Below, one piece after another: positions 9,031 to 49,467 of a DNA stretch of 64,000 bases. Origin of the DNA: Bilabrum cf. latius (Eukaryota); the NCBI GenBank assembly GCA_965178125.1, contig OZ237758.1, positions 62,001 through 126,000 on the forward strand. The letters are read 5' to 3'. The position numbers were made by a program, and so were the translations under genes. The notes beneath the pieces were generated by a model. It was not told the DNA's origin. It saw nothing but the letters and a program-made list of their open reading frames with translations, and did no database searches. How positions within the stretch are numbered: the stretch's first letter is position 1; each line of letters begins with the position of its first letter.

Positions 9031-11139
9031 TCACCACGGGTCCTGTGGCGCCACAGACACTGGAGAGAACACCAGGGTGGGCAGCACGCACCCAAACCAC
9101 ACGAGCGGGTTGCACGCACCGCAGCAGCACCAGCCACCGATGCCCATTTCCTCCTCAATACCAGTGCTCTTGTCCTTGTCCTTGTCCTTGTCATTGTACC
9201 TCGCCCTGTCCCTGCTGGACCCCTCCGCCGCACCCAGGCCCACCGCATGACCATGACCAGCCCCTCCCTCCTCGTCCTCCCGGCGCTGGCGCCGCCTCTC
9301 GAGCAGAGCTGCCCTGTCGCGGTGCAGCGACCTCGTCATCGTCGCTGCAGCAGCCGCGCTCGTCGCCAGTGCCAGCAGCTCCAGCACCGCCACCGCGCCA
9401 AGGTATCCAGACTACGTGTCTGCACCCGGGCATGCGTCCAGCGCGGGCTCCTCTGCCCCCGCCTCATCGTTAATCCCTGCCTCGCCCCCTCCCCCCGCAG
9501 TGGGGGCAGGCCCCGTCCTCACTGTGAAGCCGAGTCCCATGCCGCCCCACACCGCCAATGCCACCAAGAGCACGACCACTACGCTCGCCAACACCACCGC
9601 TCCGTGGCATGCGCTCAGCAGCTGCCCCGCTAGCGTGTGCCTCAGCTCGGGGGGCTCCTCCTACGATGAGCCCAATCCGCTCAGTTGCCTGGACCCCACC
9701 CCGCCCTGGGCCTCCACCACGTCCATCCGCATCGCCAGCTCAAGCTCCCTAGAAGCCCGCCGCCCGCGCACCTTCCTTCCCCGCCCTGTGGCGGAGCTCC
9801 GCCTCCTCCGAGGATTGCTGCGGCGCCGCCCCTGTCCATGTCCATGTGCGCGCTCCGCCCCGGGACTGAGCGTGCCGTCCATCTCCATGGGGAAATGTCG
9901 CGCCCCTCGCCCCCCTGCTTGTCGCTCACCCGCACCTGCACCTGCCCCTGCACCTCCCGCTGCCTCCCCCGCGCTCCCGGTGTGCGGCACGGGCGAGGAC
10001 AGTGCATCGTCCGTGTGCACCGCATCGGCATCGCCTCGTGCAGAGGAGGGCTCCTGGACGCCAATGCCAGGCCCCAGATTCGCGCCGGAGTCTGCACTGC
10101 CCGCCTGAGTAGGCAAAGGGGAGGGGGCCGGCGCTGGGGGTGCGTGCAGCCCAACTGCATTGGCGAGCGCGCTCTCGGCTGGAGCATCCACCCCCGTGGA
10201 AGTGGCCTTGTCTCCGTGGAAGGGGATCTGCGTGCCTGCCGCCGTGCTGGACCGCATCAACTCGTTGTCGCTCCCCTGCGTGTGCGCGCCCAGCCCTGCT
10301 CGCCCACTGGCGGCCGCGTCCCCCACGGTGCTCCTGCTCTCCAGGTCTGGCTCGGCCACGCCCATCTCCAGGCCGGCAGCGGGCGGGTAGGCAGCGCCCC
10401 GCGCGCGAGTGTTGGCGCGAGCGCTCTTGCTAACAGGGACGCTAGACTATCCTTTCGAGTCCCACTGGGCGCCGGCCGTGGCATGCGCGTAATCAATCGC
10501 GCCTTGCTATCGCCGCGAACCGCCCGAGCTGCCGTTATCCAATGTCGGTTGGGGCCACGCAGCCGTCACCAAATGAGTTCCATTGGCATATACTACCACG
10601 ATTGAAAGAAGCATTAAGAAAGCCAGCGTACACATGGCCACCGCGATGGCAAAACTGCCCAGCACAACCTGCTTTTCGGCAGGCAGTAAGCCTGTGTGAT
10701 CGGCTCCGTCCCTTACCTCGCCATCATAGCTGCACTCCCCCGAGCGTATAAGCTGCCAGTCGTCATAAGATATGAGTAACAGTGGAACATACAGAGGGAG
10801 CGTAAAGAAGAGGGCGCACCATCTTGAGACGCAGATCGTGCGCGCTAGCTCGCTGTTGAAGTGGCGCAGCCTCGATTGGGTTAGATCACGCCGATCCAAC
10901 CCTCCAAGCGTGGTTCGTACTTGTACCGCCTGGGCAACCGCAAGCATGTTATACGAAACTAGGGGCTGCTTGGGACCCCAATCGCTCGCGAACCCGCGGA
11001 AATCTGATAGAAACCGCGATGTGCTAGATGCAGCGCACTGTAGCGCAACCCACGGATGGAGTGAATCGGTCGCGAATGGGTCGCATCCGTAAGCAGCTGC
11101 AATACGATCAGAGTTTGCGATATCGGCCTGCAATTGCAT
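9031..11139 (-). CDS. Hypothetical multi-pass membrane protein (ends uncertain)
   Basis: ORFs 10507-11139, 9661-10365, 9412-9597 and 9031-9393 share a frame and are separated only by TAGs (10507, 10447, 9661, 9412). Several hydrophobic helices flank a low-complexity loop. Confidence 0.6.
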
Positions 11140-11307
11140 GCAAATTTAGTGTGGGCTTACACAAAGCCACCGGGCGTCACCAAGGCGCGGCATGGCGGTG
11201 CCACCGACCGATCCAGCCGAGGAGAGGTTACAGCAAGGTGGCACCTCGGCCAGCCGACCAGCTGCACGCGCAGCCAGGCCGCGCCATCCGCCAGTTCCGA
11301 CACTTGC

Positions 11308-15208: not shown

Positions 15209-15600
15209 TCACTTAGCCCTGCAGTATGTCACAGGCAGGCAGAGTGCGAAAGAGAGATTGGTCCTTATCTGATGGCTAGGAAGACACTGGTGCAGACGGT
15301 CCTGCTATAAAGGTTGCTGCGGGGCGAAGGAAGAAGCGGTCACGCTTTGGCCCTGCCCCGGAGGCTAGTTCGCAACCTCCACGAAGTGATTCCCATCAGA
15401 GCACGTATACATCCATGCCAGCTACGAATGCTTCCAATCCAGATGCAATGAGGGAGAGACGGGGCCGAAAATCGCGATTCGGGGCGGTCCCAGACACCAA
15501 GCAGATTCCTGGACAAGCAGCGGCAATCCCCCCGACGCTACCAGCTGCCTAGGGACACGCTGAAAGCAGCGTTTCTAGCGTGCCAAAATCTTCTCGGGCG

Positions 15601-18600
15601 ATGGGGTCGTCTGGGGCATCTTCCGAAGGGGCGTCCGGAGAGGTGATCGGCGGCGGTCAGGGCGCCAAGGCACTCGCTCGCGAGGCGGCACAGATATCGT
15701 GGGAACGTGAGAAGATGGACGTGATGCTTGCCACCGGTCGCAAGGGGAGGGGTATGCTGGAGGGCGCCGCGGAGGCCCCGGACGATGGGTCTGAGAACAA
15801 GGCCCACCTGGTGGTGATGGGCGCACGGCCCCCCTTCCTTCAGGGCAAGGTGAGGCTGAGCAGGCAGCTGCAGATGGTGCCCGTGGTGCGAGATCCTACG
15901 AGCGACATGGCCGTGGGGGCGAAGAAGGGCTCGCACGCGCTGCAGCAGGCGCGGCAGGACAAAGAGAAGAAGAAGATGAGGCAGCGGTTCTGGGAGGTCG
16001 GCGGCAACCGCATGGGCAAGGTGATCGGGGTGCAGGGGCGGGACGAGGAGGCAGAGGCGGGCAGGGAGGCGAGGGAGGGGGAGAGCGCCCGCGTGGTGGG
16101 CATGGGGCAGAAGCAGATGGAGGCAGCGCATGAGATGGCGGCTGCTGCTGCGGAGCTCACTGCCCGTCTGGAGATGAGGATGCGGAAGGGAGAGGGAGAC
16201 GAAGAGGGGGGCAAGGGTGGGCCTGGCAGGGAGGATGGACAGGGTGCAGCGGAGGCATCTCGGAGTGAGGGATCAGAAGAAGCACTTCTATCCAGCTCTG
16301 CAGCTAGTGCTGAGTCTGGTCCCTAGACAGCAGCGCAAGGCAGTGCTGGGGGTGCGCCTGCTGGGAGTGCTAGTGACAGTGAGGACGAGGACGACGGGCC
16401 CATGCCGGTAGCTCCAGCTGGAGGAATAGCCGAGAATCTCGGCGCTGCCGATAAGGAACAAGCAGCGGAAGACAGCAGCGATGAAGATGATGGGCCCATG
16501 CCAGCGCCCCCACCCGAATCAGCCTCATCGGCCTCCTCTTCGACTGCGCCGGCCGCAAGCAGCGGTAGCGGCAGCGGCGGCCCGCCTGCCAGCGGCGCCT
16601 CAGATAGAGAGCTGGTAGCGGCAGTAGCAAAAGCAGCAGCAGCAGGCGCAGCGGCCGGCTAGGACGGTTCTCAAGTCCCCAAGGTGGGGCGGGTGCGGAC
16701 CATCGCGGAGGTGCGTCGGTCCCTGCCCGTGCACTCGGTGCGGGAGGACCTGCTGCGGGTGATCCGGGACAACCAGGTGGTCATCGTGGTGGGGCAGACG
16801 GGCAGTGGCAAGACGACTCAGATGACGCAGTACCTGATGGAGGATGGGTATGGCAGGGAAGGCCTCATGATCGGGTGCACGCAGCCGAGGCGGGTGGCGG
16901 CCATGTCAGTGGCCAAGCGGGTCTCGCAGGAGGTCGGCTGTCCGCTGGGAGACAAGGTGGGGTACACCATCCGCTTCGAGGACTGCACCTCGTCTAGGAC
17001 CAGGATCAAGTACATGACCGACGGGATCCTCATGCGGGAGTCGCTGAGGGACCCCGCGCTGGACCAGTACTCGTGCATCGTGATGGACGAGGCCCATGAG
17101 CGGTCGTTGTACACGGACGTGTTGTTCGGGATCATGCGCAGGGTGCTGCGTAGGAGGCGGGACATCAGAGTCGTGGTAACCAGCGCCACCATGGACGCCG
17201 GCAAGTTCTCGAGGTTCTTCGGCGGGGCTCCCGTGTTCGAGATCCCGGGGCGGCCGTACAAGGTGGACGTGCACTACCTGCGGTCCGCCCCCGACGACTA
17301 CGTGGAAGCGGCCGTGCGCCGGGTGACTGAGATTCACCTGGGAATGCCGGCTGGCGACGTGCTGGTGTTCATGACTGGGCAGGAGGACATCGAGACCACG
17401 TGCGAGCTGGTGGCCACTCGCATCAAGCGGCTCATGGCAGAGGACGTCAGAGCCAAGCTGCGCCGGGGGGAGATCGAGGAGCAGGCCGCCAGGCTGCACG
17501 TGGACGAGGAAGAGGACGAGGAGCGGGGCGCTTCGGCCGCCTCTGCGGGCCTCGAGGAGACGAGCACGTCCGCTGCCGCCGAGCTGGGCGACGACGAGAT
17601 CGACCTGAGTCGGTCTGCCATCGCGCCCATCATGGTGCTGCCCATGTACTCGCAGCTGCCGCAGGACCTGCAGAGCAAGATCTTTGACCCGGCGCCCCCC
17701 GGTGTGAGAAAGGTGGTGGTCAGCACCAACATCGCGGAGACCTCGCTGACCGTGGACGGGGTGGTGTACGTGGTGGACTGCGGGTACTGCAAGCTCAAGG
17801 TGTACAACCCACGCATCGGGATGGACGCTCTGCAGGTCACGCCCGTCTCGCAGGCGAACGCCAATCAGAGGAAGGGTAGAGCCGGCCGCACGAGGCCTGG
17901 CCACTGCTACCGCATCTTCTCGGAGGCCTCGTACCATCGCGACCTGCTGCCCAACCAGGTCCCCGAGATACAGCGCACCAACCTGGCGAACGTGGTGCTG
18001 CTGCTCAAGTCGCTCGGGGTCAAGGACCTCACCACGTTCGATTTCATGGATCCCCCGCCGCAGGAGAACGTGGCCCAGTCGCTCTACCAGCTGTGGGCGC
18101 TGGGGGCAGTGGACGACGAGGGGGAGCTCACTCGCATTGGCAAGAAGATGAGCGAGTTCCCGCTGGATCCCCCTTTGAGCAAGATGATCCTGGTGGCCGA
18201 GAAGCTGGGCTGCAGCGCCGACGTGGCCGCCATCGTGAGCCTGCTGAGCGTGCCGCAGGTGTTCTTCCGCCCGCGGGGCAGGGAACAGGAGGCAGACGCC
18301 GCCAAGGAGAAGATGCAGGTGCCCGAGAGCGACCACCTGACCCTGCTAAACGTGCTCCAGCTATGGGAGCGCCACGGGCGCAGGGCGGCGTGGGCGCAGC
18401 AGCACTACGTGCACCAGAAAGGCCTCGTGCGGGCCAGCGAGGTGCTTGGGCAGCTGAGGGACGTGATGCGGCAGCAGAGGGTGGGCTTCCTTGGCGAGGA
18501 GGACAATGCCGCGGCGGGAGGGGCGGCGGGGGACAGGGTGCGGCGGGCGCTGTGTTCCGGGTATCTGTACCACAGCGCCAGGGCACACGGCGTGGAGGAG

Positions 18601-19284
18601 TACGCCAACCTGCTGACCGGGCTGCCGTGCCACCTGCATCCGACCAGCGCCCTCAGGGTGCTTGGGGCCTCGCCCGACTACGTGGTGTACCACGAGCTCG
18701 TGTACACCTCCAAGGAACACATGATCTGCGTGTCGGCGGTGGACCCCGAGTGGCTGGTGGAGGCAGGCCCGCGGTTCTTCAGGCTCAGGGAGGGGGCGGG
18801 CAGCCGGCGACAGGCCATCGGGGTGCAGGGCACTCTGGGGCCGGAGGGCTTGCCCGCGGGCCAGGGGGCTAGTGCCGCTTCCTCCTCCGCGTCATCTTCG
18901 TCATCTGCCGCTGCATCGACGCCCTCTACAAGGGGGCTATCTGTAGGTGGCAGCACACCGGGCGGGTTCTCCGTGGCAGCGTCCTCTCGGTTCAGCGGGC
19001 TGCAGTCGATAGGCCCTGACAGGCTGCTCACCATGAACCGGTGGGCTGCTGCAGATGCAGAGACACCACTCATCACCAGCGGGGGTCTGGATGAATTCGG
19101 GGCGGGAAGAGGCGGGAGCATGGCAGGACCCCAAGGCGGGGGCGTGGGGGCATCCGCACGAGGTGGAAGGCGGGGCGGGGTCGGGGCTGGAGGCACGAGG
19201 TAGGGTATTGCTGCCGCGATGGAGCGGCTCAAGCGGAGGGAGCAGATGAAGAGGAAGAAGACGCCCAGGCGGGGAGGGCTGTGA
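15601..19284 (+). CDS. PRP16: Pre-mRNA splicing DEAH helicase PRP16/DHX38 (start uncertain)
   Basis: PPFLQGK...VRDPTSDMA...FWEVGG N-terminal block; [27 protein letters not shown]2 region. TAGs at 16324, 16660 and 19201; reading through the last gives the family-typical C-terminus TPRRGGL-TGA. Confidence 0.95.
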
Positions 19285-20949: not shown

Positions 20950-22347
20950 ATGGCTGTCCCAGCCGCACTATCGGTCCTCTTCTGGGGTACATCTAATGTT
21001 CCCCAGAAGATTGCTGAGAAATATGTTGGTGGGGTAGGGAACGGATTGGCGTTTGGGGTCCTCACAAGCTCTGGTGCCGGCATAGGAAGCCTGATCTGTG
21101 GCCTGGTGGCTGCCGTAGTAGAGCCCGGGCAGGCAGCTCCTGTGACCGTCGACCCGTTCGGTGTGTTGGCCGGCGCAATGATCGTTGTTGCACTTGTCAC
21201 TGCAGTTTTTGCCATAGAGCGCTTGGGGCTCGGCCCCTCGCAAGCCCTTTGGGGCGGCTTATCGGTCCTCGTCGCGTACGTCGTCGGTCGCATCGCCTTC
21301 GGCGAGAGGGGGTCAAATGACACGCTAGCTCTCGTTGGAGTCTTAGTCTTGCTCGTTGGAGTCATTTGTATCGCCCTGGCTCCTGCTGCGGCACTTCTTG
21401 TCGATGTTGCGCAGAGCAGCAGCAAGCTCTCTACGGGCCAAGCGCACACTGCCACTGGCAGGAGATCGTAGAAGCAGGTCGCGAATGGGGACGTGGACGC
21501 GGCGATGGCGGCAGCCCCACTGATCCCCCAGCAACATCCTGTCGCATTGTCCACTGGCAGGCACAGTTCACTGGTAGAAGCGAGCAGCGTCCTCGCAGTG
21601 GCAGTGGGGCTGCTCTGCGCCTCTGTCGTGGGCATGGCCGGTGGGCTGCTGCTGGTGCCGGCCCACTACATTAGGGCAAGACAGGCAAGGGGGATCGGGT
21701 ACACGGTGTCGCTGGGCGTGGGTGCACTGGGAGGAGCGGGTTTATTGGTGCTGATGATCGCGACCGGGCTGGTGGGAGGTAGTAGAGTGGGGCCGGCGGG
21801 CGCGGGAGCTGTGGGACTGGAGGGCAAGGGACTGGAGGGCAAGGAACTCGAGGGCAAGGGACTCGAGGGCAAGGGACTCGAGGGCAAGGGACTCGAGGGC
21901 AAGGGACTCGAAGCGGCCAGTACGAAAGATGTTGCTTCGGGTCCCATGGGGGAAGGTAGCACGAATGCAGGCGTATCAATCTAGACTAAGACCGTGGGCC
22001 ACCTTAATTCGGCTCCGATTCGACCGGAAGGCCCCTTAGACCGCGAAAGGGAAGGAGCTTGGGAGGCCCTGGTCGGGATGGCGGGGAGGCCGTGGGTGCT
22101 GTTGCTGGGACTGTGCAGCGGGCTGCTGTGGAGCGCCGGCAACTTGTGTTCGCTTCTCGCCATGCAGGCGCTACCCTACTCGGTGAGTTTCCCGGTGGGG
22201 CAGACAGCCCTGGCAGTGGGTGTGGCCGTGGGGATCTTATGCTTCGGGGAGGTGCCGGGTGTGGTCCCGCGCGCTGCCTTCGTCGGAGGGGTCTGCGCCA
22301 CGGTGTCTGGGGCTTGCTTGCTAGGAATATTTGGGAGCAAAGGGTGA
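20950..22347 (+). CDS. TMEM144-like / DMT-superfamily transporter
   Basis: About 10 hydrophobic helices; LFWGTSNVPQK, GLGPSQALWGG, SGLLWSAGN, VSFPVGQ, FGEV. Three same-frame ORFs joined by TAGs at 21469 and 21982; TGA stop. Confidence 0.75.
21814..21911 (+). repeat. 15-bp coding tandem repeat, (GLEGK) x about 6.5
   Basis: GGACTSGAGGGCAAG units visible. Confidence 0.9.
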
Positions 22348-28199: not shown

Positions 28200-28435
28200 C
28201 ATGTGATCAAACATGGTATATTCGATATGATATCTTCATGAAGTCCAAAGCATCGCATTCGTCGTCGCGCGGACTAGGGTGGAGAGGCGGAGCCGGCTGC
28301 ACATTGTGGCATGACTGCTCCGATCCTTGATTCAAGAACTGTGCCTACAGCATCTGCGCCTGAGCAGGAGGTGTCTGCTCAAGCCGAACAGCTTGGCTTT
28401 GCTGTAGAAAAACCTTGTCCTGCAAGCAGTGTCCT

Positions 28436-29440
28436 ATGGAGTCGTAGTATTGGGCTATGCCGCAGTTTCTGCAGCGTGGCGTGGTTGCCACGTGCATCGC
28501 TGTAGTGGCGTTTGGCTACGTCTACGCCATCCTACCTTTTTGGTTCTGGCACTGCGTTGATGTACCCTCCCACGCTGCCTCCAACGACGACTCTTAGACC
28601 AACGGAATGCTAGACTTGATCGGTGCGTCGGTTGGCAACCGCGGCCTAGCTCCCGAGTACAACCCAGCAGAACCGTCCGTTAATATTTTCTTCACACTGG
28701 ACGATGACGCGGAGCCCGTGTCGATGCGGCAGTGCGAGACGCTGGGACTCTGGCAGGCTTGCTACATCGAGGAAGGCACGGGCACCTGCAACAGCCTGTT
28801 CCTGTGGGCGACGAGTAAAGGATACAACCCAGGGGGGCTATTCAGCCGTCTTTAGGCAGCATAGGCTTTTTGGATCCTTGCGACGGCGGCGGTGCTCGTG
28901 GCGGCGTGGCTGCTCTACGGAGGCAGGCGCTTGAATCTGGATCCAAGCACCACGCTAGCCGGCTACCTGCGCGTGCTCGGCTTTTTGCTATTTTTCGTGG
29001 TCGCATTCGGGGGGATGGTGACGTTTGCTGCCTTTCAGTCCACTCACAGCAAGATGCGGGCGCACATCAACGGGCACAAGGTGCAGCACGGCTCGGCCTT
29101 TGGCATCTTCGTGGTGGCCTGGCTGGCCTCCCTGCCCCTCGTGGTGCTGGGGCCAGAGGTGCTGCGAGAGGTGTTGCTGCGGGACAGCGACGGAGGGGAA
29201 GGCGTGGGTGGGGGCGCGGAGGATGGGGACTACCTGGATATGGACCGCATGACGGGGCCACCTGCGATGGGCCCTCCTCCTGCCAGCGGCGCGTCCCTAG
29301 GCCTCGGCGCCTCGGGGTACGGTGGCGGTGCCATGCCGAGGAAGTCGAACGTGCGGCCTACACCTGGGCAGCAAGCAGCCCCGCAAGGGGGCCTGCAAGA
29401 CAGCCTGCTCTTCCAGGACGGCGACGATGCCGTGGTTTGA
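28436..29440 (+). CDS. Claudin/PMP22-like four-TM membrane protein
   Basis: TM1, GLWQAC...C signature, RL[TAG]AA[TAG]AFWIL (compare LQAVQAFMIL), HGSAFGIFVVAW. TAGs at 28445, 28595, 28853, 28862; start may instead be 28457; TGA stop. Confidence 0.75.
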
Positions 29441-29494
29441 ATTCTCCGGTTATTGTTGATAGTAACGCGTTATTTTGTGGCAAGCACGCCCGCG

Positions 29495-29539
29495 GTAGCG
29501 CCGCGCGCCTACAATAGCGTGAGCGGAACCTAATTTGGC
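29495..29539 (+). repeat. Left inverted repeat (45 bp)
   Basis: GTAGCGCCGCGCGCCTACAATAGCGTGAGCGGAACCTAATTTGGC is the exact reverse complement of 35202-35246. Confidence 0.95.
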
Positions 29540-30146
29540 CGCGCGCGCGGCCGGCGGGGCGCCCGGATCACGTCTGGGCGCCTGTGAGCGGGCGGGGAGT
29601 AAATCTGCGGGGAAAAACGCGCCTACTCTATTCTTTGTGACTGTGTGCGTCGATTGCGCCGGGATTTGATCGGCGGCAAAAAAATTGCCGGCGGCGCGGC
29701 GCGACTGTCTCGCCCACTGCAGCCGAAACGTGCGGGCCCAGCAAATTTTTCCTTAAACACCCTTAAAGACAGATTTTTGATATGATGCTCTGTATGGTAT
29801 GTTCTTTCGATTGTGGCCATGTGAGAGGCTGGGTGGCGCTGGTTCGGGCGCAAGGAGCCTCTCTAGCTGGCCCGTCCAAACGCGCTCTCGGCCGTCTGCA
29901 GGCCGCCCCAGCGGCTGCATCCGCATGCGCCTGAGCGGAGCCTGTTGTTCGATCTCATATTTATCACACGAACCGAAGGCGCGCTCCCGTCCGGGCGAAG
30001 AAGTGCCGACTTTCGACCCGAACGGGTCCCGCAACCCCGCTGCGGCCCTGGCAGGCCGCGCCAGGCCGTCGCTCCCGCGGCCCCCAGAGCCTGTAGGGCT
30101 CTCAGATGCCTTCCTCTGTGTCTCACAGCATCGGGGGCTTCCTCCC

Positions 30147-33100
30147 TCAGATCGCGTCGAACGCCTAGGTCTGCTTGCTGGCCAACACAGCCGCCGCCCC
30201 CCTGGCCGCCCGAGGCGCGTCCTCCGCGTCTTCCCCCTCGGCGTCGATCTGCGCCTCGGAATCGGGAATTTCCTCGCCCATCGGATCGGGGGCGACATCG
30301 CCGCCCTATTCGGCGTCCATCATCGCGGCAGCCACGCCCTTTGCATCCCCGTCGCCCGCCACGGCGGCCGCTGCGCCCCCCTCGTCCTCGTCGCTCCCGT
30401 CGCGGAGCCACCCCCGGTCCTCCGCCATGGCTCTCGCAAACGTCTCTTGGTAGTCCATTCCCTTTTGCGTGGGCAGCCTCCTTCGGCTCGATCTGCGAGA
30501 GGACTGGTGCTGGGGGTCGGACCGCTTCGAGGCATCCGCCAGGCCGTCCTCCTACTCGTCCTCGCTGGACTCAGACCCTGCCTCGCCCTCCACGGCAAGC
30601 GCCTCCCGCCGCCTTTGACTTCCGCTCCTGGCCCTCCCCTTGTTGCTTCTGCCCCTCCCCCTGCCCCTGCCCCTCCCCCTGTTCTTCCCACCCTTTCCCC
30701 TGTTGCCCGTGCCCCTCCCCCTTCTGCCCCCACCCACCCCCCGTCTGCCCCTCGTCCGCCCCTTGCTGGTGCCGTCCAAGGCAGAGTTCGAGCGACTCGC
30801 AGGGGCATCCGATCGCGACTGCTGCTGCTGCTGCTGCGGTGCCGCGCCCGATCTGCCCCCCGAACCCCCTCCAATCGCTGCGGGGGCGATCTGCAGCCAC
30901 TTAGTGACAGTGGCGTCGACCCGCCCCCGCCACGAGGCCCGCGCCTCCTACGGTTGCAATGCAAGCCCTCCGGTATTCTGCCTGAGGGTGATGCCCACGA
31001 TGCTCGCCAGGCGCCAGAGAAGGTCCGCCCCCGTTGAAGTGACCTCCTATGCTTCTGCCGTGTACTCCATCAGCAGCTGCCACCCGAACTTCCTGAGCAG
31101 CTTGTCATCACATTTAGCCAGCAGCGGGGGCAGCAGGAACACCAGCCGCCCCATGCTCCCGAGGCGACAGGCCTGCATCCGCAGGCCCGAGACCACGGTG
31201 CCCGCCAGGTCCTGCCGGAGGCCTGCCATGCGGCGCGCGTCGCCATCTTCCTCTTCCGCCTCCCTCCCCCCTGCAGCCCCTTCATCCTCCTACTCGCCCT
31301 CCTCCTCGCCCTCACCCCCACCCTCCTAGATCTACACGCCCTCGCCCCCACCCCCCTCCTCGTCCCCGTCCGCTCCGCCTCGCCCCCTCTCGGCGACAGA
31401 CAGGTAGTCCGAGGCCGCCGCCCGGCGCGCGGCGTGCTCCTGCCGCACGGCCTCCCTGAGGGCCCCCAGCAGCACGTCCTCGGGGTCCCTGTGCGCGAAC
31501 TGCTCGTTGTCGGCCTCGCCGTAGCGGAGACGCGCCATCAGGCTCGGCGACCGCAGCAGCCGGCACATGGCACAGGTGGCGCGGAGGACGTCTTCCTGCG
31601 AGACTCTCTATACCAGGGGCGTCGCCGTCCGCACCGCGGCCGCAAGCAGCGACACGTACGCCCGGTCCACGGCGAGCGCCAGCACGGACACGGACGGTGC
31701 CTTGCGCGCCTTGCCCGGGCTCATGCCCAGCCCCGCCACCCCGCTCAGGGCCAGCACGCCGCTGAGCACGTCCGTCAGAGGGGGGGGGGTCCGGGGCCTG
31801 GCCGTCGCCCGCCCCGCCGGAGGCCCTCGTACCCGTAGCCTGTGCGGCCGCAGGCGCAGCAGCAGACCCGACGGACGAAGCAGAAGCAGAGGCCCTCATC
31901 CCTGACGCCTGCCCGGCCTGAGAGCCCTCCTGCCACGATCCGATGCGGCCGTCCAGGTACCCGCTCAGGTGCTGGTGCAGCGCCTCGGTCTGCACCATCT
32001 TTTCGATCAGAAAGGACTTGTCAAAGTACTGGCTGAGGATGCGCAGCAGCAGGCGGACAATGCCCTCGTCGCTCGGCGGGCCACGCACCCCCATCTGCGC
32101 GCACACGACGCGGTGCAGCGACTCGAGCTCGTCGCGCGAGGCGCCAGACAGGCGCAGCTCGGCCAGGAGCGGGGCGAGGGGTCCTGCGGCTCCCTCGTCC
32201 CCGCCCCCCCCCAGCGCGGGGGGCGCGGCATCAAAGATGCACATGCGGGCCTTGCCCATCGTCAGCGCGGCCCGGGCCGCCCCGGTTGGGGTGATGCAGG
32301 GCAGCACCCTGGTGAGGCAGCCGTGACCCCCGAGCATGAACCCAAAGGCGACCGTGACCCGAGTGTGCGCCGCCGCAAGGCCCCTATTCGTCCCCTGCTC
32401 CATCCAGTCGTCCAATCTGCCGAGCACGTCTCGGAGGTTGGCGTTGTCACGCCCCTCGTGTCCAGCCAGGCAGACGTCGACGCCCCCCGCATAGAGCGAT
32501 TTGAGGGCCTCCGACAGGCCCGCCCCGCCGGCGAGGAGGCTGGGCAGGAGGGAGGTACCCTGCACCACCAGCACGACCCTGCGACGACCTCCCGGCGCCC
32601 CTGGATTCGGCGCTGCAGCCGAAGCCAGAGCCGCCTCTTGGGGCCCCTACTCGTGGTCCTGATTCGTGGCCACGGCACGGCCTGCGGCAAGGCCCGCCTG
32701 CAGGGCCGCGCATGCCGAGTCTCCGTGAGCGGGGCAGCCCCTCACCTCCTCGTCGACCTGTGCAAGTTGCTGTCCGCCGCCCGGGTGATCTGCCAGCCGA
32801 ACGCCTTCACGGCCATCACGTCCCCCAGCAGGCTCCCTCGGGCGGCCCACGCGTCCTCCTCTGAGGCATCCACGCGCTGGTATTCCCCGTACTTCGCGAG
32901 GCGCCTCCTCTCGTGGTGGAGCTGCCACGACTGGCGGATGCACTTGTCCATGGCTGCCCCCGTCCTCGCGTGGCACTGGAGCAGCGCCGACCACTGCTCC
33001 ACCTCTTCCAGGGCAGCCTCATCGCCCTCTCTGGCCTCGCGCAGGCTCCGTTGCATCTCTTTCTGCAGCAGGTGGAAGTTCAGCCTGAGCTAGTACAGCA

Positions 33101-34595
33101 AACTGGATGTGCGGGTCCGACGTCTGTCATACGCAGCCTTCTCCGCCTTTGCGTTCTCCTCCGCCTGCTGCCCCGCGGACCGCCGCCGCCGCCGGCGGTG
33201 CTGCACCCCGCTCCTCGAGCCGATCATGGACGTGGTCTGCATCATCACGCCGCCCAGCTTCTAGGGCACACCCCCGCTGCCTCCCGCGCCGTCCAGGCCC
33301 AGGCCCAGGCCCAGGCCCGGGCCCAGGCCAAGCTCCCGGTCGGGTCGGGTCGAATCATCTCCGCTCTCGTCCTCAGCCATTGCCGCAGAGGACCCTCCCT
33401 GTGCCGCCCCAGAAGCGGGAGGCGGCGATGGCCCCGACGACGGTGCCGGTGCGGGTGGCGCTGCGCCCGCCGGCCCCCCTGCACCCGCTGCGCCCATGCG
33501 CGGGCCCGTGTTCGCCCGCTTCAGGGCCCGGATGGCCTGGAGGAAGGGCTCTGTTCCTAGCCTGGACGCAGCGTTTGCCTGGCACACCCCGCACACCCCA
33601 GGCAGCTTCCCGCTGCCCTGCAGGTCGTCGCCCTCCGCGCAGGGACTCAAGCAGCACTGGCACCTGGCTCCCCCCTGCTCCTGCTCCTGCCCCGGGAGGG
33701 GGTCGGGCTGATCCGCGCTCGCCGCGTCGGAGTCCTCGATCGGGAGGGAAAGGTCCACGGGGGACGGCCCCCCACCCGCGGGGACCAGCTCGGCGTCCCT
33801 GTGGCCGGGCTCCACGGCGGCCACCTGGCCGGGGGTGGCCGGGCGGAGCAGGGCGCCCGCCAGCACGGCGGCAGCAGGGTCGATCCGGCGCTCCCCGCCT
33901 GTCGAGTCCGGGTCAACAGGCCGGATCTCGTCCGCGACGCGACCGACAAAGTTGGACGCGCTCAGTCCGGCCGCCCCGAGCGCGCGGGCGGCAGAGGCGG
34001 CGTGCTTCGCCAGAAGCGGTACCGTAATGGCCCCAGCCCTCTTGCGGCCGCGACGGCTAGGTGCAAGCAATTGAGAGCAAAAGCCGTCAATCTACTCAAC
34101 TGTGAGCGTCGAGCCGCGCGCTCTGTTCAGCCCATGACGGGCAATTCGGCGAAGAATTGTCCCGAGTGGCGCCTAGTTGCGATCAATCAGCTTCTGCAGC
34201 AACGCTTCCGGCCAGACCTACTTGATATTCGCTGCTGTCCACTGCTGCAAGTTCTCCATCATGCGCTTACACACCTCGAGTCCTTTAAGTGTGGGGCAGA
34301 TATCCCGAGTTCCAGCGATGTTGTACTCGTATATGCCAAGGGCAACCAGACAGGCCGCCAGCACGCCGAGCGCGGAGGCCCCCGTCCCGGGTGTGCCTGC
34401 GCTCTCATACCCCAAGCTCTCGTCTAAACTAGAATTTCTCTGCGTCGTACGTGATGGTAGGGAAATGGGCTGCACATATCGCCACAAAACGGAGAAAAGT
34501 GGGAAACCGCGCAGTTCGAGCCCATGCAAAGGCTCCGACTTGCATCGACGATTGCAAAAATAGGTCATCTTCGAAATCAATGAAACACGGCCCAT
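30147..34595 (-). CDS. Large hypothetical protein (about 1480 aa) inside the inverted repeats, with two apparent frameshifts (start uncertain)
   Basis: Same-frame fragments joined by about 15 TAGs, ending in TGA at 30147. The protein-like frame switches near 32780 and switches back at the G10 run 31780-31789. Cys cluster CQCCLSPC...CGVC; no family recognised. Confidence 0.6.
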
Positions 34596-35201
34596 CTCTT
34601 TAAAACTCCAAGAACTAAGTGATAGACCCGACAGAAATATCGCCCCACCAAGACACGCCGAGCGCTATGCAAACGCGCACGGCACCAAACCCCAAAAACT
34701 ACGACCTAGCGGTATTGGCGATGGCATCCGAGTGGAACATCACCACATATGCGGTCTAGAAAGGATAAAATTAATATCTTACATCAATCAACTGCGGAAT
34801 TTTTAGCGTGGACCCAGAGTTGGCTGCGCTAGAGGCGCTGGCAGATGCGCGCCCGCGCTCGGTTGCAATCTCCATTCAATCCGGGGGGGCTACGCGAGAT
34901 CTGCGTAAGACAGAGAACGATAGCCCTTAGACGATTTATGACGGCAAAATTCAAAATATGGGAGATATAGTTTTTCTAAAATTGCCCGTAGCCCGAGAAA
35001 AGCGGGCGGCAAGCCGACGCCAGGAAACGGCGTAAATCACGAACACCGGGCAAACGGCCTACGCTTCGAGCCTCAGCAGGCGCAGGCATGACGATCCGAT
35101 TTTCATACCCCACAAACTCACTTTTGCGCCAAGAAAATTACCATAACCCCATCGTGGACGGAGGTCGAGTGCCGCAAAGTTTCAGATTCCCGTCCGGGGC
35201 C

Positions 35202-35246
35202 GCCAAATTAGGTTCCGCTCACGCTATTGTAGGCGCGCGGCGCTAC
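35202..35246 (-). repeat. Right inverted repeat (45 bp), overlapping an 11-bp-stem hairpin at 35236-35261
   Basis: GCCAAATTAGGTTCCGCTCACGCTATTGTAGGCGCGCGGCGCTAC; hairpin CGCGGCGCTAC-TACC-GTAGCGCCGCG. Confidence 0.95.
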
Positions 35247-35297
35247 TACCGTAGCGCCGCGACATGTTTACTCGGTTTATCTTGTCAAAGAGCGATC

Positions 35298-35959
35298 ATG
35301 GTAAGATGATTCGACCTATCTCGAGTATTTTGTATATGCCTTTCTCAGCAAGGAGCTACATTGGACCCCCGGTCCCTCTGGTCTACGCAGGCTGGCCGCA
35401 AGTAGGAGGGCATCATGAACTTGTCCAAGTACATGGACAAGAAGGTCCGTGTACGTTTCCAGGGAGGTAGAGAGGGTAAGTTTCCGTCGAATTGATTCGT
35501 TCTGATGCACTGGGGTGACCCTAAGTCCAAGTAGCTAGCGTGTCTTGTGCGGTCGGTCTGTGCGCAGTTGTCGGCATTCTTAAAGGGTTCGATCCGCTTA
35601 CGAACATGGTATTAGACGAGGCTGTTGAGTTTATGCGCGGTGAGACAACTTCATGCTATCACTTGTTAAGTCTGGGCAAACCCTGAAACGATGCCAACCC
35701 CATTCCTGGTCCATTTCGATTCGCAGACCCGGAGGACCCTCTCACTACAACTGCGTCCCAGCGAACGCTGGGCATATGTATCTGCAGGGGCAACGCTCTG
35801 ATGTCACTTTGTCCTGAAGACGGTTTTGAGGAGATCGAGAACCCCTTCGGTGAGGCCGGAGGAGATGAGGATGACGGGGAGGGCGCAGGTGCAGACGGCA
35901 CCTCGCCAGCGGCAAGGGGGGGAGCAGGTGAGGGTAGCGCCGCCGCCCCGTCCACATGA
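35298..35959 (+). CDS. LSM7: U6 snRNA-associated Sm-like protein LSm7
   Basis: Exons 35298-35300, 35391-35475, 35568-35639, 35727-35959. K[TAG 35403]EGIMNLSKYMDKKVRVRFQGGRE, GILKGFDPLTNMVLD, LGICICRG, EEIENPF; TGA stop. Confidence 0.93.
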
Positions 35960-42757: not shown

Positions 42758-42899
42758 AATGCATTTCTGAAGCCCCCCGGCCGGGGCTCGAGCTACAAAG
42801 AGGTTGCAACCGCTTGCGGCTGCCGTGCAATCCCACACTTTTCATCCGAGTAGAACCCAACAATAGGGTTCCAGCGTTTAGTCATCGTTCTCAGTCTAT

Positions 42900-45800
42900 A
42901 TGTCATCATCGGGTCGTCGGGGGAATCGCGGTCGCGGCGGCGGGCACAGGGCAGCCCGAGACGCTGCGCCTGGCTCGAAAGCATCGAGCGAGAACGGAGT
43001 AGGAGAGGACTTTCGCATCCAAGTCGAGGAGGCCCTGCTCACATTTCGGGATACTGACGAGCCCCAGCTGGAGTTCCCTGCCGATCTCAACAATGTGCAA
43101 CGCAAATTCGTGCACCACCTGTGCGGCCAGCTAGGCCTTGACAGCAAGAGCTACGGCAAAGGGGAGTCGAGAAGAATCATCGTGAAGCGGAAACGCTCTA
43201 AAGGCACGGGCGGGGCTGGTATGCTGCCCCAGATCCACTTGCACCCAGAATCAGAGGCAGTCATCGCTCGGTATCTGGACCGCTTCCCGCCGACCCCGAC
43301 AGAGACGAGCCCAACACTCGGCTCGGCGGAAGAGTTCAAGATGTTGTCAACGCGAGTGACACATGCAGCACAAGCAGGAACCGCGTCCTCCGCGATGGAG
43401 CCACCCCGGCCCGCCGACGCCGCACGCACACCTGCTGGTGCAGAGGCGCTCCTGCCGCCGGCCCCCGAGCCGCCCGCCCCCCCGATGGCAGCCAAGGAGC
43501 ATCTCTCGGCGCTCGCCCGGCGGGTATCGGACCCGCGCTGGCCCTCTGTGCTGCAGGGCCGCGCCTCTCTCCCCGCGTGGACCGCCCGCGGCCTCTTCTC
43601 CAGCGCCCTCCGCCGCTCCCGCGTCATCCTCGTGAGCGGCGCCACTGGCTGCGGCAAGTCCACGCAGGTGCCCCAGTTCATCCTGGACGACCCAGAGATA
43701 GGGCCCCGGGCCAACGTGATCGTCACACAGCCGCGCCGCATCAGCGCCACGTCGCTCGCCGAGCGGGTTGCGGACGAGAGGCTGGAGCCGCTGGGGAACA
43801 CCGTGGGCTACAGGGTCAAGCTGGACGCGAAGCGGGGCCGGAACACGAGGCTCCTCTTCTGCACCACGGGAGTGCTGCTGCGGCGCATCGCGGCGGACCC
43901 TTGGCTCCGGGGGGTGACCCACGTGGTGCTGGACGAGGTGCACGAGAGGGACGCGGCCACTGACTTTTTGCTGGTGCTGCTGCGGGACCTGCTGCTGAGG
44001 GGGCGCAGGGGGCTCACGGTGGTGGTCATGTCGGCCACGATGCAGCTGCGGCTGTTCCTCGAGTACTTTGCCAGGCCCCCGAGGGCGGGGGAGAGGACGG
44101 CGGCGCTCCCGCTGCCCCCCGCCGCTGCTGCTGCGGCTGCTTCTGGTGCCGATGGGGCGTAGGACGGGGCAGGGACTGCCGATGCAGTCGCTGTGGCCGG
44201 TCCGCTTGCGGGACTAGAGGACGACGCCGCGGCCGCCCGTCTCTCGCAGGAAGGGCTGAGGCCGCAGGTGGTGTACATCAAGGGCAGCGCGCACCCTGTG
44301 CGTGAGTTTTGGCTGGAGGATGTGCTGTGGGAGATGGGTCGGGAGCGGAGAGAGAGGAGGCAAGGTGGAGGGGGGCTGGCGCCGGAGGGGAGGGGCGTGC
44401 TGGAGCCGCCCCCCGCCCCCGAGCTGAACCCCGAGGATGAGGCAGGGGACGCCTCCCGGGCCCGTTGTTCCCTGTGCGGGGCCCGCGCCTTCGAGGACTG
44501 GGACGAATACGCGATGCATGTGGCCACTTGCTTCGGGCCAGAGCAGCCCGGCGAGGGGGGTACTAGGGGCCCGCTTGGTGTGGCGGAGGAAGTACAAGGC
44601 GAGAAGGAGGACGGGCCTGAGGAGGACGGCGAGGGAGGGGGGGAAGGGGCAGGGGGCAGCGCGGCCGATGGGGCCAGCAGGGCGACGGCGGCGAGTGCGG
44701 GCATGGACGCTGGAGAGCCGGGTGGAGAGGACGATGGCATGCCGCTGGAAATGCGCCGGCACGTGGCATTCTACGACCCCGAGTCCGAGGATGCGCCCAG
44801 GGCTGGAGGCGGCACTGGCGGGGACAGCTGGGACGATGCGGGAGCGGGCGGGCCGCAGGAAGAAGGCGGGGAGGAAGGGACGCCCTCCCAGACTGAGGCG
44901 CTGGCCAGCAGCCTGGCTGCCATCGGGGCAGCGGCGCAGGAGAGTAGGGCGCAGGTGCAGGGCATTGCGGCGCGCGGGGCTGGGTCCGGGTCTGGTGGAG
45001 CACCCCCTGGCAGCGAGGAGGAGGCCGTGCAGCGGGAGCTGCTGGCCTACCAGCGCGGGGCGGCGGACGACGAGGTGGACTGTTCCCTGGTGGTGGACCT
45101 GATCCGATCCCTGTACCAGGCGGCGGGCCCTGGATCTGCGCTGCAGGAGGGCAGGCGCAGGCAGGCTGAGGACGAGGGCGAGGACGAGGGCGCTGCGGGG
45201 CTCGGGGCTGGAGCTGGCAGCAGGCGGGGAAGAGGCAAGGGCAAAGGCAAGATCAAGGCCAAAGGGGGCACCAAGGGCGAGCAGAGCCCCGTGCAGCAGC
45301 TGTGGGGTGGGCCTGGAGGTGTGTCGTCTCTCGCTGGGCAGAGCCTAGACCTGTCCCCTGCCGCTGCCCTCGCCTCTGGGATCGAGCCCGCGGGGGGCGA
45401 GGCAGGGGGCAAGGGCGGCCGTGCGCGAGACCCCGTACTGTCCGCGGACTCTATGGGCGCGGTGCTTGTATTCCTTCCCGGGTGGGACGATATCAGCAAG
45501 TGCAGGAGGCTGCTGGAGGAGGACCCCGCTCTGGGGGACAGGAGGAGGGCCTGGGTGCTGCCGCTGCACAGCGGAGTGCCTTCCAGGGAACAACGGAGGG
45601 TGTTCGAGGTTGTTCCCCCGGGGGTGCTCAAGGTGGTGCTGAGCACCAACATCGCGGAGACCTCCATCACCATCCCCGACGCCACGTTTGTCATCGACGC
45701 GGGCAAGCACAAGCAGAGGGCGCACGACCCACACACCGGCTGCGTGTCGCTGTCCTCCGTGTGGATCCCCAAGGCCAGCGCGAGACAGAGGGCGGGCCGG

Positions 45801-48800
45801 GCGGGCCGCGTGCGGCCGGGCATCTGCTACCACCTGTACAGCAAGCGGCGCTGGCGAGGCATGCCCACGGACATCGCCGCCGAGATCCTGCGCACCCCCC
45901 TGGAGGAGCTCTGTCTCCAGGTCAAGCTCATGCAGGCCGGGAGGGCGGCCGCGAGGCGCGGGGTGGCTCAGGGGCATGTCGGTGGGGGCGCGCCCTCGAC
46001 TAGTGGGGGTCTAGGGCTGGAGGAGGACGAGAGCGTGGCTGCATTCTTGGCCCGGGCCGTGGAGCCCCCCCCGGCGCTGGCCGTCCGTCAGGCGGTGCGT
46101 GCCCTCGTCGATGTGGGGGCCGTGGCGGTGGTGCGCAGGGGGCTGGCTTCGCCCTCGTCGTGGTCGTCGCCGGCGAGTGCGAGTGCGAGTGCGACTCCTC
46201 CGACTCCGACTCCAAGGGAGGTGTTGACCCCGCTGGGCCGGGCTCTGGCACGGCTGCCCATGGCCCCGCGGCTGGCGAAGATGGTGCTGGTGGGCTGTGT
46301 GCTTCGTTGCCTGGACCCAGTGCTCACTGTGGCGTGTGCCATGGCAGATCGATCTCCGTTCGTGATGCCCATGCGGTCCAGGGACAGGGAGCGGGCCGAT
46401 GAGGCGCGGGCCCGGCTGTGCGACGGCGCGAGGTCGGACCACTTGGCGCTGCTGGGGGCCTTCAGGGGCTTCGAGAGGGCCCGGGGGGGAGGGGGGGGTG
46501 GGGGGGGAGGGGACATGTTCCAGTTCGGGGGGCGCGAGATCCGGTTCTGCAACGACCATTTCCTGAGCCCCGTCTCTCTGGGAATGCTCCGGGGGTCCAA
46601 GGGGCAGGTGGTGGACGCCCTCCTCGAGGCGGGCACGCTCAGGAGGGAGGACCTGCGCGCGGGGGCGGGAGGCGCAAACGCGCACGCGAACAACCCGGCG
46701 GTGGTGGCAGCGGCGCTGGCCGCAGGCTTGTACCCGCACGTGGCCCGGCGGGCCCCCGGTGACACCAAGCTCAAGGGCAGAGAGGGGCAGCCGCTGGCCA
46801 TCCACAACGCCAGCGTGAACGGGGGAGGCGGGGCGGGCCGTGCGCTGCAGCGGTCTCTGGCCAGCGGCGAGGCGGGCGGGGCGTGGGCCGCCGAGGCCCG
46901 GGATTCACGCGCCTTTCAGAGGTCGAGGAGCGACCGGAGCGGGGCGTCTTCTTCTTCCAGGTCGTCGTCCTCGAGAGCGAGGGAGTGGGAGTGGCACTGC
47001 TTCCACGAGGTGAAGCAGATGAAGCAGAGCCACGGGGCCAAGGCTGTGGTCACCGAGACGACCGTGGTGCCAGCGGTGGGTGTGGCGCTGCTGTGCGGGC
47101 CAGACGAAGCGGCGGTCAGAGCAGCAGCGGGCTTCCCTCTGGCCTGGCGCATGCACGGCGAGGGGGGGGTTGCTGGGTAGATCTAGGGGGAGAGGGGAGT
47201 CAAGGGGGCGGACGGAAAGATGGGCAAAGGCAAGGGCAAGGGCAAGGGCAAGGGCAGATCTCATCGGGGAACACCGCTTGTTCCCGCCTCTTCCATGCCT
47301 GTGTTCCCCAGCGCCCTCCCCGCCGCCCCCGGTCTGGCACAGAGCGGCCCCCTCCAGGTGCTTGAGCAGCTGGCTCTCGCGGCGGGCTGCTTCGACGGGC
47401 CCAGGGAACAGTGGCCCCTGCGGCCCGGGGCGGCCTCCTCCAGCGAGCGCCCAATGGCCCGCGGGATCCCAGCCGAAGTCCTTGCCGGGTGGCCCGCCGG
47501 CCTCCGAGAGGCTGCCCTCCGGGTGTAGGCGCAGCTGGGCAGGGCGAGGGATGCGCCCGTGGTAGACCCTGGGTGGGCGCTGGTGGCGGCGCGGGCGGAC
47601 GAGGCCGCTGGTGCAGCCGCGGCGCAAGTGGCTGCGGCGCGGGGGCGAGGAAGCGGCGTGGCGGTGGGAGGAGCGGGGGGGGCAGGGGTGGGGGCAGGGG
47701 CGGGTGGGGCCGTGCTGCAGGCCCTGCATCCAGGCGGCGAGTTGGCGGTCATGTCTGCGGTGTCCAGTGGTGTGACGAGTGGTGCCCCTGCATCCGCTGC
47801 AGGCGAGGACGGCAAGGGCAAGGAAGATGGGGAGGAGGAAGAGGATGAGGAGGCCCCGGCCCGCGGCCCGCTACGAGTGGACGACTGGATCGCGTTCGGT
47901 GCTGCGAGGGCGGAAGGCCTGGGGCTGGCGGTGCTGCGGCTGCGGCTTCGGACTGCCCTGACTCTGGCGGCCTAGGGCAGGCTCTTCGATGGGTCCTCCG
48001 GTCTGGGCGAGGGTCACGCTGAGTCGCTCGCTGGGGCGGTGGGGGATGTGCTCGCCCTGGAGACCTTCGGGCGGCGAGCCTCTGCGGCGACTGGGGTGCG
48101 GACAGATGCGGGCAGGGGAAGGGGAAGGGGAAGGGGAAGGGGCAGAGGTAGAGCTGGAGGCAGGGGGCGGGGATCGAGGGGTGGCGATGGGGGCATGGAA
48201 AGGGGTAGGGGCAGGGGCAGGGGCTACGGAAGCAGCAGCGTTGAAGGTGGTGGGGATAGGGCAGGGAGCCATCGGGGTGGGGGATCCAGCAGGGGGAGGG
48301 GTGGCGGCGGGGGCAGGGGACGAGGGAGCGAGAGGGAGAAGGGGAGGGGGAGGGGGTCGTCTGTCCCCCTGGTGCCGTTCTAGGCCTCAGTTTCGATGGC
48401 GAGGGCAGCCAGCGAGGGGGAGGGGTGGATGCGAGAGAGAGGGACTAGAAGTGGTCGGGGTGGGTTGGCATCGCACGGGGGTGCATCACATGGGGGTGCA
48501 TCGCGGGGTCCAATGCAGAGGGGTGTGAGCGACAGTGCAACGAGCAGCAGGACAAAACAAGTCGTGGCTCGCGGTAGCACGGGTGGGGCCATGGCTCGCG
48601 GTAGCACGGGTGGGGCCATGGCTCGCGGTAGCACGGGTGGGGCCATGGCTCGCGGTAGCACGGGTGGGGCCATGGCTCGCGGTAGCACGGGAGGGGTGTC
48701 TGCTCATGAGCATAGGGGGCAAGATAGCGTTGGCCACGGTAAAAAGAGCGGTGAAGGCCAGTCGAAGAAGAAAGGAAGGCGCACCAAGAAGGCCAAACGA

Positions 48801-49007
48801 GCGGAGAAGCCTGCTGGAGAAGGCAGGGGTGCAGAAGCTGGTCTACCGGATGCGCGGGCCCCAGCTGTTTCAAGCAGTTCGGCTGCATAGGCTGCAATTG
48901 CTGCTGCAGTGGCAATGGGGATCGTTCCAAGCACCGAAGGTGGGGCGAGGACGAACAGCTCAGCAAGCTATGCAAGCGTGCCAGCCGCCAAGCCTCTCGA
49001 TCTATAA
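42900..49007 (+). CDS. R3H-domain DExH RNA helicase (YTHDC2/DHX36-like) with RGG-rich tail
   Basis: R3H (FPADLNNVQRKFVHHLC); [49 protein letters not shown]2. Conserved VDDWIAF block lies beyond four TAGs. TAGs at 44160, 47178, 47184, 47526, 47973, 48381, 48888; TAA stop. Confidence 0.88.
48565..48691 (+). repeat. 27-bp coding tandem repeat, (ARGSTGGAM) x about 4.7
   Basis: TGGCTCGCGGTAGCACGGGTGGGGCCA units. Confidence 0.9.
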
Positions 49008-49467
49008 TGCTCCGAAGCTTGCAAGGTATACAAATATACATACACAAATGTATTCTAAATTGGTCGTCTTCACAAGTTGATGAGACCATGCCAGCAACAC
49101 AAGCAATGAAAAAATGAAAAAAGGGAATTCGGGCACGAGGAGTCGCACCTCGGATTCTTCGGCCACAACGAAGTGTGATACTGTTTCACCATACCCGACA
49201 AATACAGAGGGCCAGATGACAATATACATATCAGACCAAAAGTTTATTGGAGACGTTGATGAGAGTAGTTTACTCCAATCCATCGACGTTGGATGTCCGA
49301 GGGAATTCTATACATATTGCGTGAAATAGGGTAGTTTTGGTACTTTCAGTTCACCACAGCAAGCCGAGGTGCAAACCCGAGTAGCGCTCAATCCATGTGG
49401 TGGCCACCGGCAAGCTTGGTCTCAGAGAGGCCTTGGCTTCATTTCATGGCTCCACCGCTGCGCCTGT

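Follow-up and report, generated by a model that had tools for sequence, protein, structure and literature searches.

A candidate family of mobile DNA elements with 48-bp inverted termini and an orphan gene in Bilabrum cf. latius

A stretch of 64,000 nucleotides (nt) from the eukaryote Bilabrum cf. latius (assembly GCA_965178125.1, contig OZ237758.1, positions 62,001 to 126,000 of the forward strand), analyzed here at its full length and referred to as the window, contains a segment of about 5.75 kb that is bounded by a 48-nt inverted repeat and encloses a gene without relatives in any protein family searched. The segment is probably one member of a multi-copy element with 48-bp terminal inverted repeats, and its mobility is something that we infer. 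We consider it rather probable, though by no means assured, that it belongs to an unclassified family of mobile DNA elements bounded by inverted repeats, in which the orphan gene is carried as cargo or as an accessory gene and which is moved in trans. The kind is known, namely, a repeat-bounded DNA element with nonautonomous derivatives; what differs is that no superfamily can be assigned to it and that the carried gene is an orphan. The anatomy fits that of a class II element, with exact ends at the repeat boundary, long subterminal regions, internally deleted derivatives, and an insertion between genes. A preliminary description of the window had proposed an unclassified or nonautonomous element with cargo; the repeat family, its boundary at the repeat edges, and the orphan gene support that proposal in part, and the gene proved not to be one open reading frame (ORF).

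The inverted repeat and the repeat family that it bounds

The two arms of the inverted repeat are complementary at 47 of 48 positions (98%), with 5656 nt between them, and the outermost 45 nt of both arms are exact. The 45-bp exact inverted repeats of the preliminary description are thereby confirmed, with a true length of 48 nt. When up to 3 mismatches were allowed, the 45-mer had 2 matches in the window, a count that was reached in 0 of 100 dinucleotide shuffles. A scan of the 64 kb for inverted repeats of at least 28 nt lying within 15 kb of each other returned three pairs, the remaining two of which were 29 nt long and 76% complementary. The 48-nt pair is the sole long inverted repeat of the window and is real, far above chance. 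BLASTN of positions 29441-35300 against the window returned the two arms and two low-complexity matches and nothing else.

The element is sited in a short intergenic gap. The upstream ORF ends with a TGA stop codon at 29438-29440, 54 nt ahead of the left arm, and an LSm-like gene starts approximately 50 to 170 nt beyond the right arm, so that the tight placement between a claudin-like stop and an LSm gene that had been described earlier is correct. The noncoding ends of the element, of about 600 and 770 nt, are well above the usual gene spacing in the window. The earlier description of structured subterminal spacers between the arms and the gene needs correction: beyond the 48 nt, the two subterminal regions had no common 9-mers or 10-mers (shuffle means of 0.8 and 0.2, respectively), and the left end folded no better than shuffled sequences (z of 0.52). 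No tandem repeats were found in the element beyond the low complexity of its coding sequence.

Evidence for further copies came from contigs of four public runs (X1, X5, X6, and X8) that were aligned to the region at identities of at least 90%. No run is registered as RNA; X5 and X6 are termed RNA-like here for their spliced joints, and X1 is termed DNA-like. The GT..AG joints of the neighboring LSm-like gene (35474 to 35567 in X6 and 35638 to 35726 in X5 and X6) are present in the former two and absent in X1. In X1, the depth of the flanks was 33 to 46 (about 37). The summed depth rose to 222 to 525 over 29202-30302 and 152 to 241 over 30303-31770, fell to 71 at 31771-32137 and to 35 to 44 over 32138-33605, a middle part of 1.5 kb at single-copy level, and rose again to 83 to 251 over 33606-35440 before returning to 40 at 35441-35807. 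The raised depth thus covers roughly the first 2.3 kb inside the left arm and roughly the first 1.6 kb inside the right arm and extends into the ORF. Summed contig depth does not equal copy number, and single places were inspected for that reason. At 29785, 29931, 34684, and 35139, the letter of the window had a depth in X1 of 39 to 44, which is that of a single copy, and other letters had depths of 231, 472, 217, and 257, respectively, in 3 to 4 contigs. The segment is therefore not single copy, and both end regions have roughly 5 to 12 additional copy-equivalents. At the identity threshold used, the middle 1.5 kb was represented by the window copy alone, which is thus the sole full-length copy seen.

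The boundaries of the repeated unit could be placed from the same contigs. The X1 contigs that cover the flanks halt at 29519 and 35219, approximately 24 to 27 nt inside the arms, as expected because words of 31 letters there meet the shared repeat. Three X1 contigs (with a mutual agreement of 0.59) and one X8 contig match the window from 29493 inward and are unlike it before that position. The outer edges of the two arms mark the limits of the family. Other contigs contain joints that skip the interior: in X1, these connect 30976 to 31097 (48 to 57 letters on the shorter side), 31861 to 34283 (32 letters), and, as a weaker case, 31319 to 33670 (21 letters), and a joint of 31488 to 34278 (87 letters) was found in X5 only. 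Because skipping joints also occur in the DNA-like run, internally deleted forms exist as DNA. A protein search found a sole relative, the paralogue fragment P0007 (86 amino acids [aa], on a separate 17-kb contig), which shares 80% identity with a stretch of 44 residues in the 3' part of the gene (residues 182-225) and then continues in another frame; it is a frameshifted copy, since the match goes on in a frame that belongs to a different ORF of the window. From the contig tables and P0007, copies are present at several different genomic sites. A short dispersed repeat of the miniature inverted-repeat type that happens to flank a host gene was considered and rejected, given that the raised depth extends about 2.3 and 1.6 kb inward from the arms and so reaches the ORF. 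The skipping joints connect left and right parts of the ORF in other copies. The 45-mer, which might have been a repeat independent of the ORF, is accordingly part of a larger repeated unit that includes it and has an ORF paralogue.

That the locus is not mobile at all, and represents a dispersed or segmentally duplicated family of lineage-specific genes that share untranslated regions (UTRs), is in our judgment very unlikely. The inverted repeat would then be a scar left by duplication or inversion at the locus, or else a common motif for regulation or recombination. The enclosed gene is indeed host-like in its intron, codon use, TAG codons, and RNA-like coverage, and a catalytic domain, a secure target-site duplication, and an empty site were all not found. 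The repeated unit, however, does not extend past the outer edge of either arm, and the other copies have unlike flanks; the outside of the repeat is exact at 45 of 45 positions; and the noncoding ends are far longer than the usual distance between genes. Its most repeated part, moreover, is a subterminal stretch that is scarcely present in the RNA-like runs and not the gene. In the bin at 29569-29935, the depth was 525 in X1 versus 3.0 in X5 and 3.2 in X6, and at the other end the depth in X5 fell from 24 (bin 34707-35073) to 0.43 (bin 35074-35440), with X1 remaining at 230 to 251.

The enclosed gene and its product

The GC content at codon position 3 places the coding strand of the inner gene on the minus strand, where the reading frame runs in frame A from about 34440 to 32745, in frame B from about 32580 to 31780, and again in frame A down to 30150 (Table 1). 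The single ORF of about 1480 aa reported for the segment does not exist in that form; the gene comprises about 1400 codons (about 4.2 kb) with one intron and one true frame break. It is covered by RNA-like contigs of X5 and X6. The joints of intron 1 connect 34428 or 34437 to 34783 (CT..AC on the plus strand) and were found in X5 (76.6) and X6 (15.2 and 14.8) and not in X1.

The two changes of frame differ in nature. At 31780, one letter of the window is omitted in contigs of X1 (41.1/51.8), X5 (59.6/59.6), X6 (9.17/9.17), and X8 (2.01/2.01), and a miscounted homopolymer in the window assembly is the probable cause of the break from frame B to frame A; further homopolymer errors may exist elsewhere in the window. 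The break from frame A to frame B is real: contigs of X1, X5, and X6 follow the window across it without interruption and contain 0 other letters (X5 record 13 and X6 record 19). A candidate intron of 167 nt at 32745-32579 (GTGAGG..CGCAG) would restore a frame of 1405 codons. It is doubtful as an intron in use, given that the RNA-like contigs seen there are unspliced and that its GC content is 0.74 versus 0.48 to 0.53 in three verified introns. A -1 frameshift site was rejected, as no X XXY YYZ heptamer occurs in the 274-nt overlap.

Table 1. Positions in the window of the features of the element and of its immediate flanks
Feature	Positions	Strand	Remarks
CCG, weak candidate for a 3-bp target-site duplication, left copy	29490..29492	.	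offset -2
Left terminal inverted repeat, 48 nt	29495..29542	+	X1 flank contig stops at 29519; contigs with unlike flanks enter at 29493
Left subterminal noncoding region	29543..29950	.	most repeated part; scant RNA-like coverage
3' coding part, frame A, 543 codons, 9 TAG, ending with TGA at 30147-30149	30147..31778	-	X1 summed depth of 152-447
10-C run (minus strand)	31780..31789	-	one base fewer in contigs of 4/4 runs, joining frame B to frame A
Middle coding part, frame B, 265 codons	31783..32577	-	single-copy depth
Frame break, A to B	32579..32745	-	TGA at 32742-32744 ends the 596-codon ORF1
Exon 2, frame A, 565 codons, 5 TAG; Cys-rich motif and predicted coiled-coil-like stretch	32746..34439	-	
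Intron 1, 343 nt, GT..AG, GC of 0.49	34440..34782	-	spliced joints in X5 and X6
Exon 1, coding, 31 codons, phase 0 into exon 2	34783..34875	-	putative start codon, ATG at 34873-34875
5' UTR, promoter, and right subterminal region	34876..35198	.	X5 depth drops; X1 depth of 230-251
Right terminal inverted repeat, 48 nt	35199..35246	-	X1 and X8 flank contigs start at 35219
CCG, weak candidate for a 3-bp target-site duplication, right copy	35249..35251	.	offset +2
Third copy of the terminal 11-mer	35251..35261	+	just outside the right arm

The gene was an orphan in every protein-family search run. Its three pieces matched 0 Pfam families at E values of 0.01 or less, with one match of 0.77 at E values up to 10, and 17 further ORFs of the element, covering all six frames, matched 0 families. 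The element protein had 0 matches in PHROGs, NCBIfam, and PADLOC, and Rfam and tRNA scans returned nothing inside the element. When the middle 320 residues were compared by HMMER with 1.84 billion representatives, a single match resulted, at an E value of 6e-4; this match, P0004, is a bacterial surface protein with DUF11 repeats and was judged spurious. In word-index protein searches, neither a 276-aa TAG-free ORF (compared at near lengths) nor P0001 (compared at longer lengths) had a match. Among PDB sequences, only weak or low-complexity matches were found, with E values of 0.13 and 0.23 for P0002, of 0.1 for P0003, and of 0.0012 for P0001 to an acidic ribosomal protein. Absence of DDE, recombinase, HUH or Rep/helicase, and polymerase motifs, as in the preliminary description, holds across all frames at the level of Pfam families, and none of the frames of the element gave the signature of a nuclease, recombinase, polymerase, or helicase.

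The protein has a Cys-rich motif, a long helical stretch, and low-complexity tracts that are rich in Arg and Gly or acidic. Its middle part appears, in a low-confidence model, to be alpha/beta, with a beta-alpha-beta pattern, and then helical; the 3' part has a helical portion, an Arg/Gly-rich stretch, and an acidic tail. The structure prediction that had been suggested as a check was run, and the single-sequence AlphaFold models had mean predicted local distance difference test (pLDDT) scores of 41.8 (P0002) and 42.8 (P0003), too poor for a fold search. Tails that are acidic or rich in Arg and Gly are found in many of the window's ORFs, so the low-complexity tracts of the orphan gene are typical of the genome.

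The inner gene uses the codon preferences of the host, TAG included. Its codon frequencies correlated with those of 9 host ORFs at 0.915, compared with 0.60 and 0.51 for the shifted frames and with 0.75 to 0.95 among the host ORFs themselves. The gene has about 15 in-frame TAG codons, and the two in-frame pieces that were counted contain 10 to 17 TAG per 1000 codons versus 2.6 to 11.7 in the 9 host ORFs; the count for the third piece was taken out of frame and is not included.

One possible but doubtful alternative is that the element is autonomous and represents a new superfamily, with the orphan protein, consisting of ORF1 and ORF2, perhaps joined by splicing at 32745-32579 or by frameshifting, as its transposase. 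The protein would bind the 48-bp ends and would cut and paste the element, and the deleted copies would be its nonautonomous derivatives. It is consistent with this alternative that the gene is the sole one between the ends, that a single full-length copy with a unique middle accompanies deleted copies that keep both ends, which is the classic autonomous/nonautonomous pattern, and that the candidate GT..AG intron would give one frame of 1405 codons; the beta-alpha-beta pattern that the low-confidence model places in the middle, the Cys-rich motif upstream of it, and a codon use that indicates long residence in the lineage also favor it. These points are countered by the absence from all frames of a DDE, HUH, recombinase, or polymerase domain in Pfam, by the single spurious match of the middle 320 residues, and by the low-complexity or helical character of much of the protein. 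The frame, moreover, is truly broken in contigs of three runs, with the candidate intron unspliced and GC rich and no slippery heptamer present. A bolder version, which we think unlikely, is that the orphan protein founded an unrecognized superfamily of transposases that bind terminal inverted repeats and cut DNA, that have no sequence relatives among about 1.8 billion representative proteins, and that evolved wholly in a lineage that reads TAG as sense; the window copy would then be the master copy of the family, which a single frameshift has only recently inactivated or which is expressed via an unusual frame change. The element is taken here as catalytically nonautonomous at present because no catalytic signature is found in any frame and because the frame is broken in the sole full-length copy.

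Element termini and possible modes of movement

For a family that is moved in trans, the favored reading, an enzyme encoded elsewhere would move, or would have moved, the element. This enzyme would recognize the 48-bp ends, copies would spread by DNA-level transposition, and the orphan gene would be an element-borne cargo or would encode an accessory protein. The cut may be staggered by 3 bp, as suggested by the trinucleotide CCG that lies 2 nt outside each arm. At any one fixed pair of offsets, 3 nt would match by chance with a probability of about 1/64. The loose ends at 29493 and the contig ends suggest that 2 further nucleotides are shared, CG on the left and TA on the right. The CCG pair, from the one copy examined, is thus a possible but weak 3-bp target-site duplication. 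The earlier statement that there is no clear duplication agrees with these results, as no direct repeat abuts the arms and only the weak CCG pair was seen 2 nt outside them.

The outermost 11 nt of the element occur as 3 exact copies in the window, each at an end of the element, with one of them just beyond the right arm. This third copy pairs with 35236-35246 to form a perfect 11-bp hairpin with a TACC loop (-19.6 kcal/mol; z of -2.23; equally good in 4 of 200 shuffles). The outer arm of the hairpin seems not to be common to other copies but private to this locus, because the flank contig reaches 35219, which with words of 31 letters puts the shared boundary at about 35248. The hairpin at 35236-35261 may be a scar of end processing, excision, or earlier insertion. 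The 11-mer was ruled out as an 11-bp target-site duplication, since contigs of other copies carry the 11-mer and the repeat from 29493 on.

Class II DNA transposons with terminal inverted repeats and 3-bp target-site duplications include PIF/Harbinger, CACTA, Zator, and Academ. The element resembles them in its terminal repeats of tens of base pairs, its size of a few kilobases, its multiple copies with internally deleted derivatives, its intergenic insertion, and the possible 3-bp flanking repeat. It differs from them in that no DDE transposase or Myb-like partner is recognizable in any of its frames and in that the duplication is insecure and lies 2 nt outside the repeat; its termini do not begin with the motifs that we take to be typical of these four superfamilies. 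Pack-MULEs are cargo-carrying or transduplicating nonautonomous DNA elements, and they are similar to the element in having inverted ends around a transcribed, host-like gene that is not a transposase and in a mobility that would need an enzyme in trans. The cargo here, in contrast to theirs, is an entire gene (about 4.2 kb) that includes an intron and a promoter region and for which no parent gene or relatives could be detected; a duplication of 9 to 11 bp was not found, and the 11-mer repeat is part of the element terminus.

A nonautonomous Helitron-like element of the HLE2 type (Helitron2/Helentron) that captured a host gene and was copied by a rolling-circle mechanism, using a Rep/helicase encoded elsewhere, would also have inverted ends. 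According to passages of PMC11417382 and PMC3627910, HLE2 elements have inverted repeats at both ends, of 8 to 16 nt, with a stem-loop after the right repeat, or the reverse of this layout, and Helitron-like elements capture genes. The copy in the window shares with this layout its inverted ends, a GC-rich stem-loop beside one end (a perfect stem of 11 bp with a loop of 4 nt, at and just beyond the right arm), the lack of a duplication abutting the repeat, and a carried gene; the two flank ends of other copies that are shown both end in T. Several features speak against it nonetheless. The repeats are 48 nt long here, the base that precedes the left end of this copy is G and not T, so that the T-T insertion site of HLE2 elements is missing at that end, and a Rep/helicase is absent from all frames of the element. 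The outer arm of the stem-loop, furthermore, seems to be private to the locus and not part of the family, and the more abundant end is the left one and not the hairpin end. We therefore regard a Helitron-like origin as highly improbable.

A number of observations weigh against the favored reading of a repeat-bounded family moved in trans. No empty-site joint of 29494 to 35247 was found among the joints listed, and the junctions between flank and repeat are present in all four runs, with no empty site seen in any of them. Low-complexity parts of the ORF attract unrelated contigs, and some joints have only 20 to 21 letters on one side. No listed contig spans the distance from an arm to the interior, such that the linkage of interior and flanks rests on the window assembly, and the termini were set from one copy and the contig tables. 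No direct repeat abuts the repeat edges of this copy in the scan for target-site duplications, and the CCG is just 3 nt long and requires the addition of 2 noncomplementary nucleotides (CG on the left and TA on the right). The full HMMER search against the large library covered the middle 320 residues only, and movement in trans is argued from the absence of a recognizable domain. Searches of other collections gave no support: the 32-mer repeat pattern had 0 exact matches in viral contigs, and the 22-mer repeat pattern had 0 exact matches in metagenome contigs; P0003 had 595 pattern matches in metagenome contigs, 0 of which were confirmed, and P0002 had 1 pattern match in viral contigs, which was unconfirmed.

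Host genome and genetic code

The host has a GC-rich, compact eukaryotic genome, with gaps of roughly 100 to 300 nt between genes. A reading of the window with TAG as a sense codon gives long ORFs that encode ordinary eukaryotic domains (14 of the 22 ORFs scanned had Pfam families), including those for a UGGT of 2210 codons with 13 TAG, two DEAH-type helicases of 1373 and 2078 codons, a TRP/polycystin-like channel, FtsJ, and ESCO. The catalytic domain of UGGT contains 2 TAG codons; in the alignment with two solved homologues, one of these codons falls on a Q conserved in both and the other on an R. The stop codons of the host ORFs were TGA in 6 of 9 cases and TAA in 3 of 9, and only TAG appears to have been reassigned. 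Lineages with such codes are listed in PMC5304391. Examples of TAG-sense reading in the window are found at 2102-8734, 15163-19284, and 42771-49007.

With its approximately 15 in-frame TAG codons, the enclosed gene would be inexpressible in a host that uses the standard code. If the family is mobile, it would represent an unclassified DNA transposon from a little-studied eukaryote in which a stop codon has been reassigned, and thereby a natural case in which to see how code changes isolate mobile elements. The orphan protein would be either a new mobility protein or the product of a complete lineage-specific gene that has been multiplied by the element. For annotation, the practical consequence is that repeat masking should include the locus, which should not be listed as one host gene of 1480 aa.

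Lineage-specific orphan genes seem to be common in this genome. Long TAG-containing ORFs without a Pfam family occur at 12530-15208 on the minus strand, 52442-55039 on the plus strand, and 9031-11145 on the minus strand (892, 865, and 704 codons, respectively). The upstream neighbor of the element (28364-29440), termed claudin-like in the preliminary description, encodes a four-helix membrane protein with 4 TAG codons and has a subthreshold Pfam match to Amastin (E value of 2.2e-5; 24.8 bits versus a cutoff of 27.2). Perfect tandem peptide repeats were seen in the window regions 48200-48700 and 21700-21900: an R3H helicase has five perfect copies of a 9-residue unit near its C terminus, and a TMEM144-like protein has six copies of a GKGLE-like unit. 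A tRNA-His (GTG) gene at 49128-49198 on the minus strand was the sole Rfam/ARAGORN match in the window.

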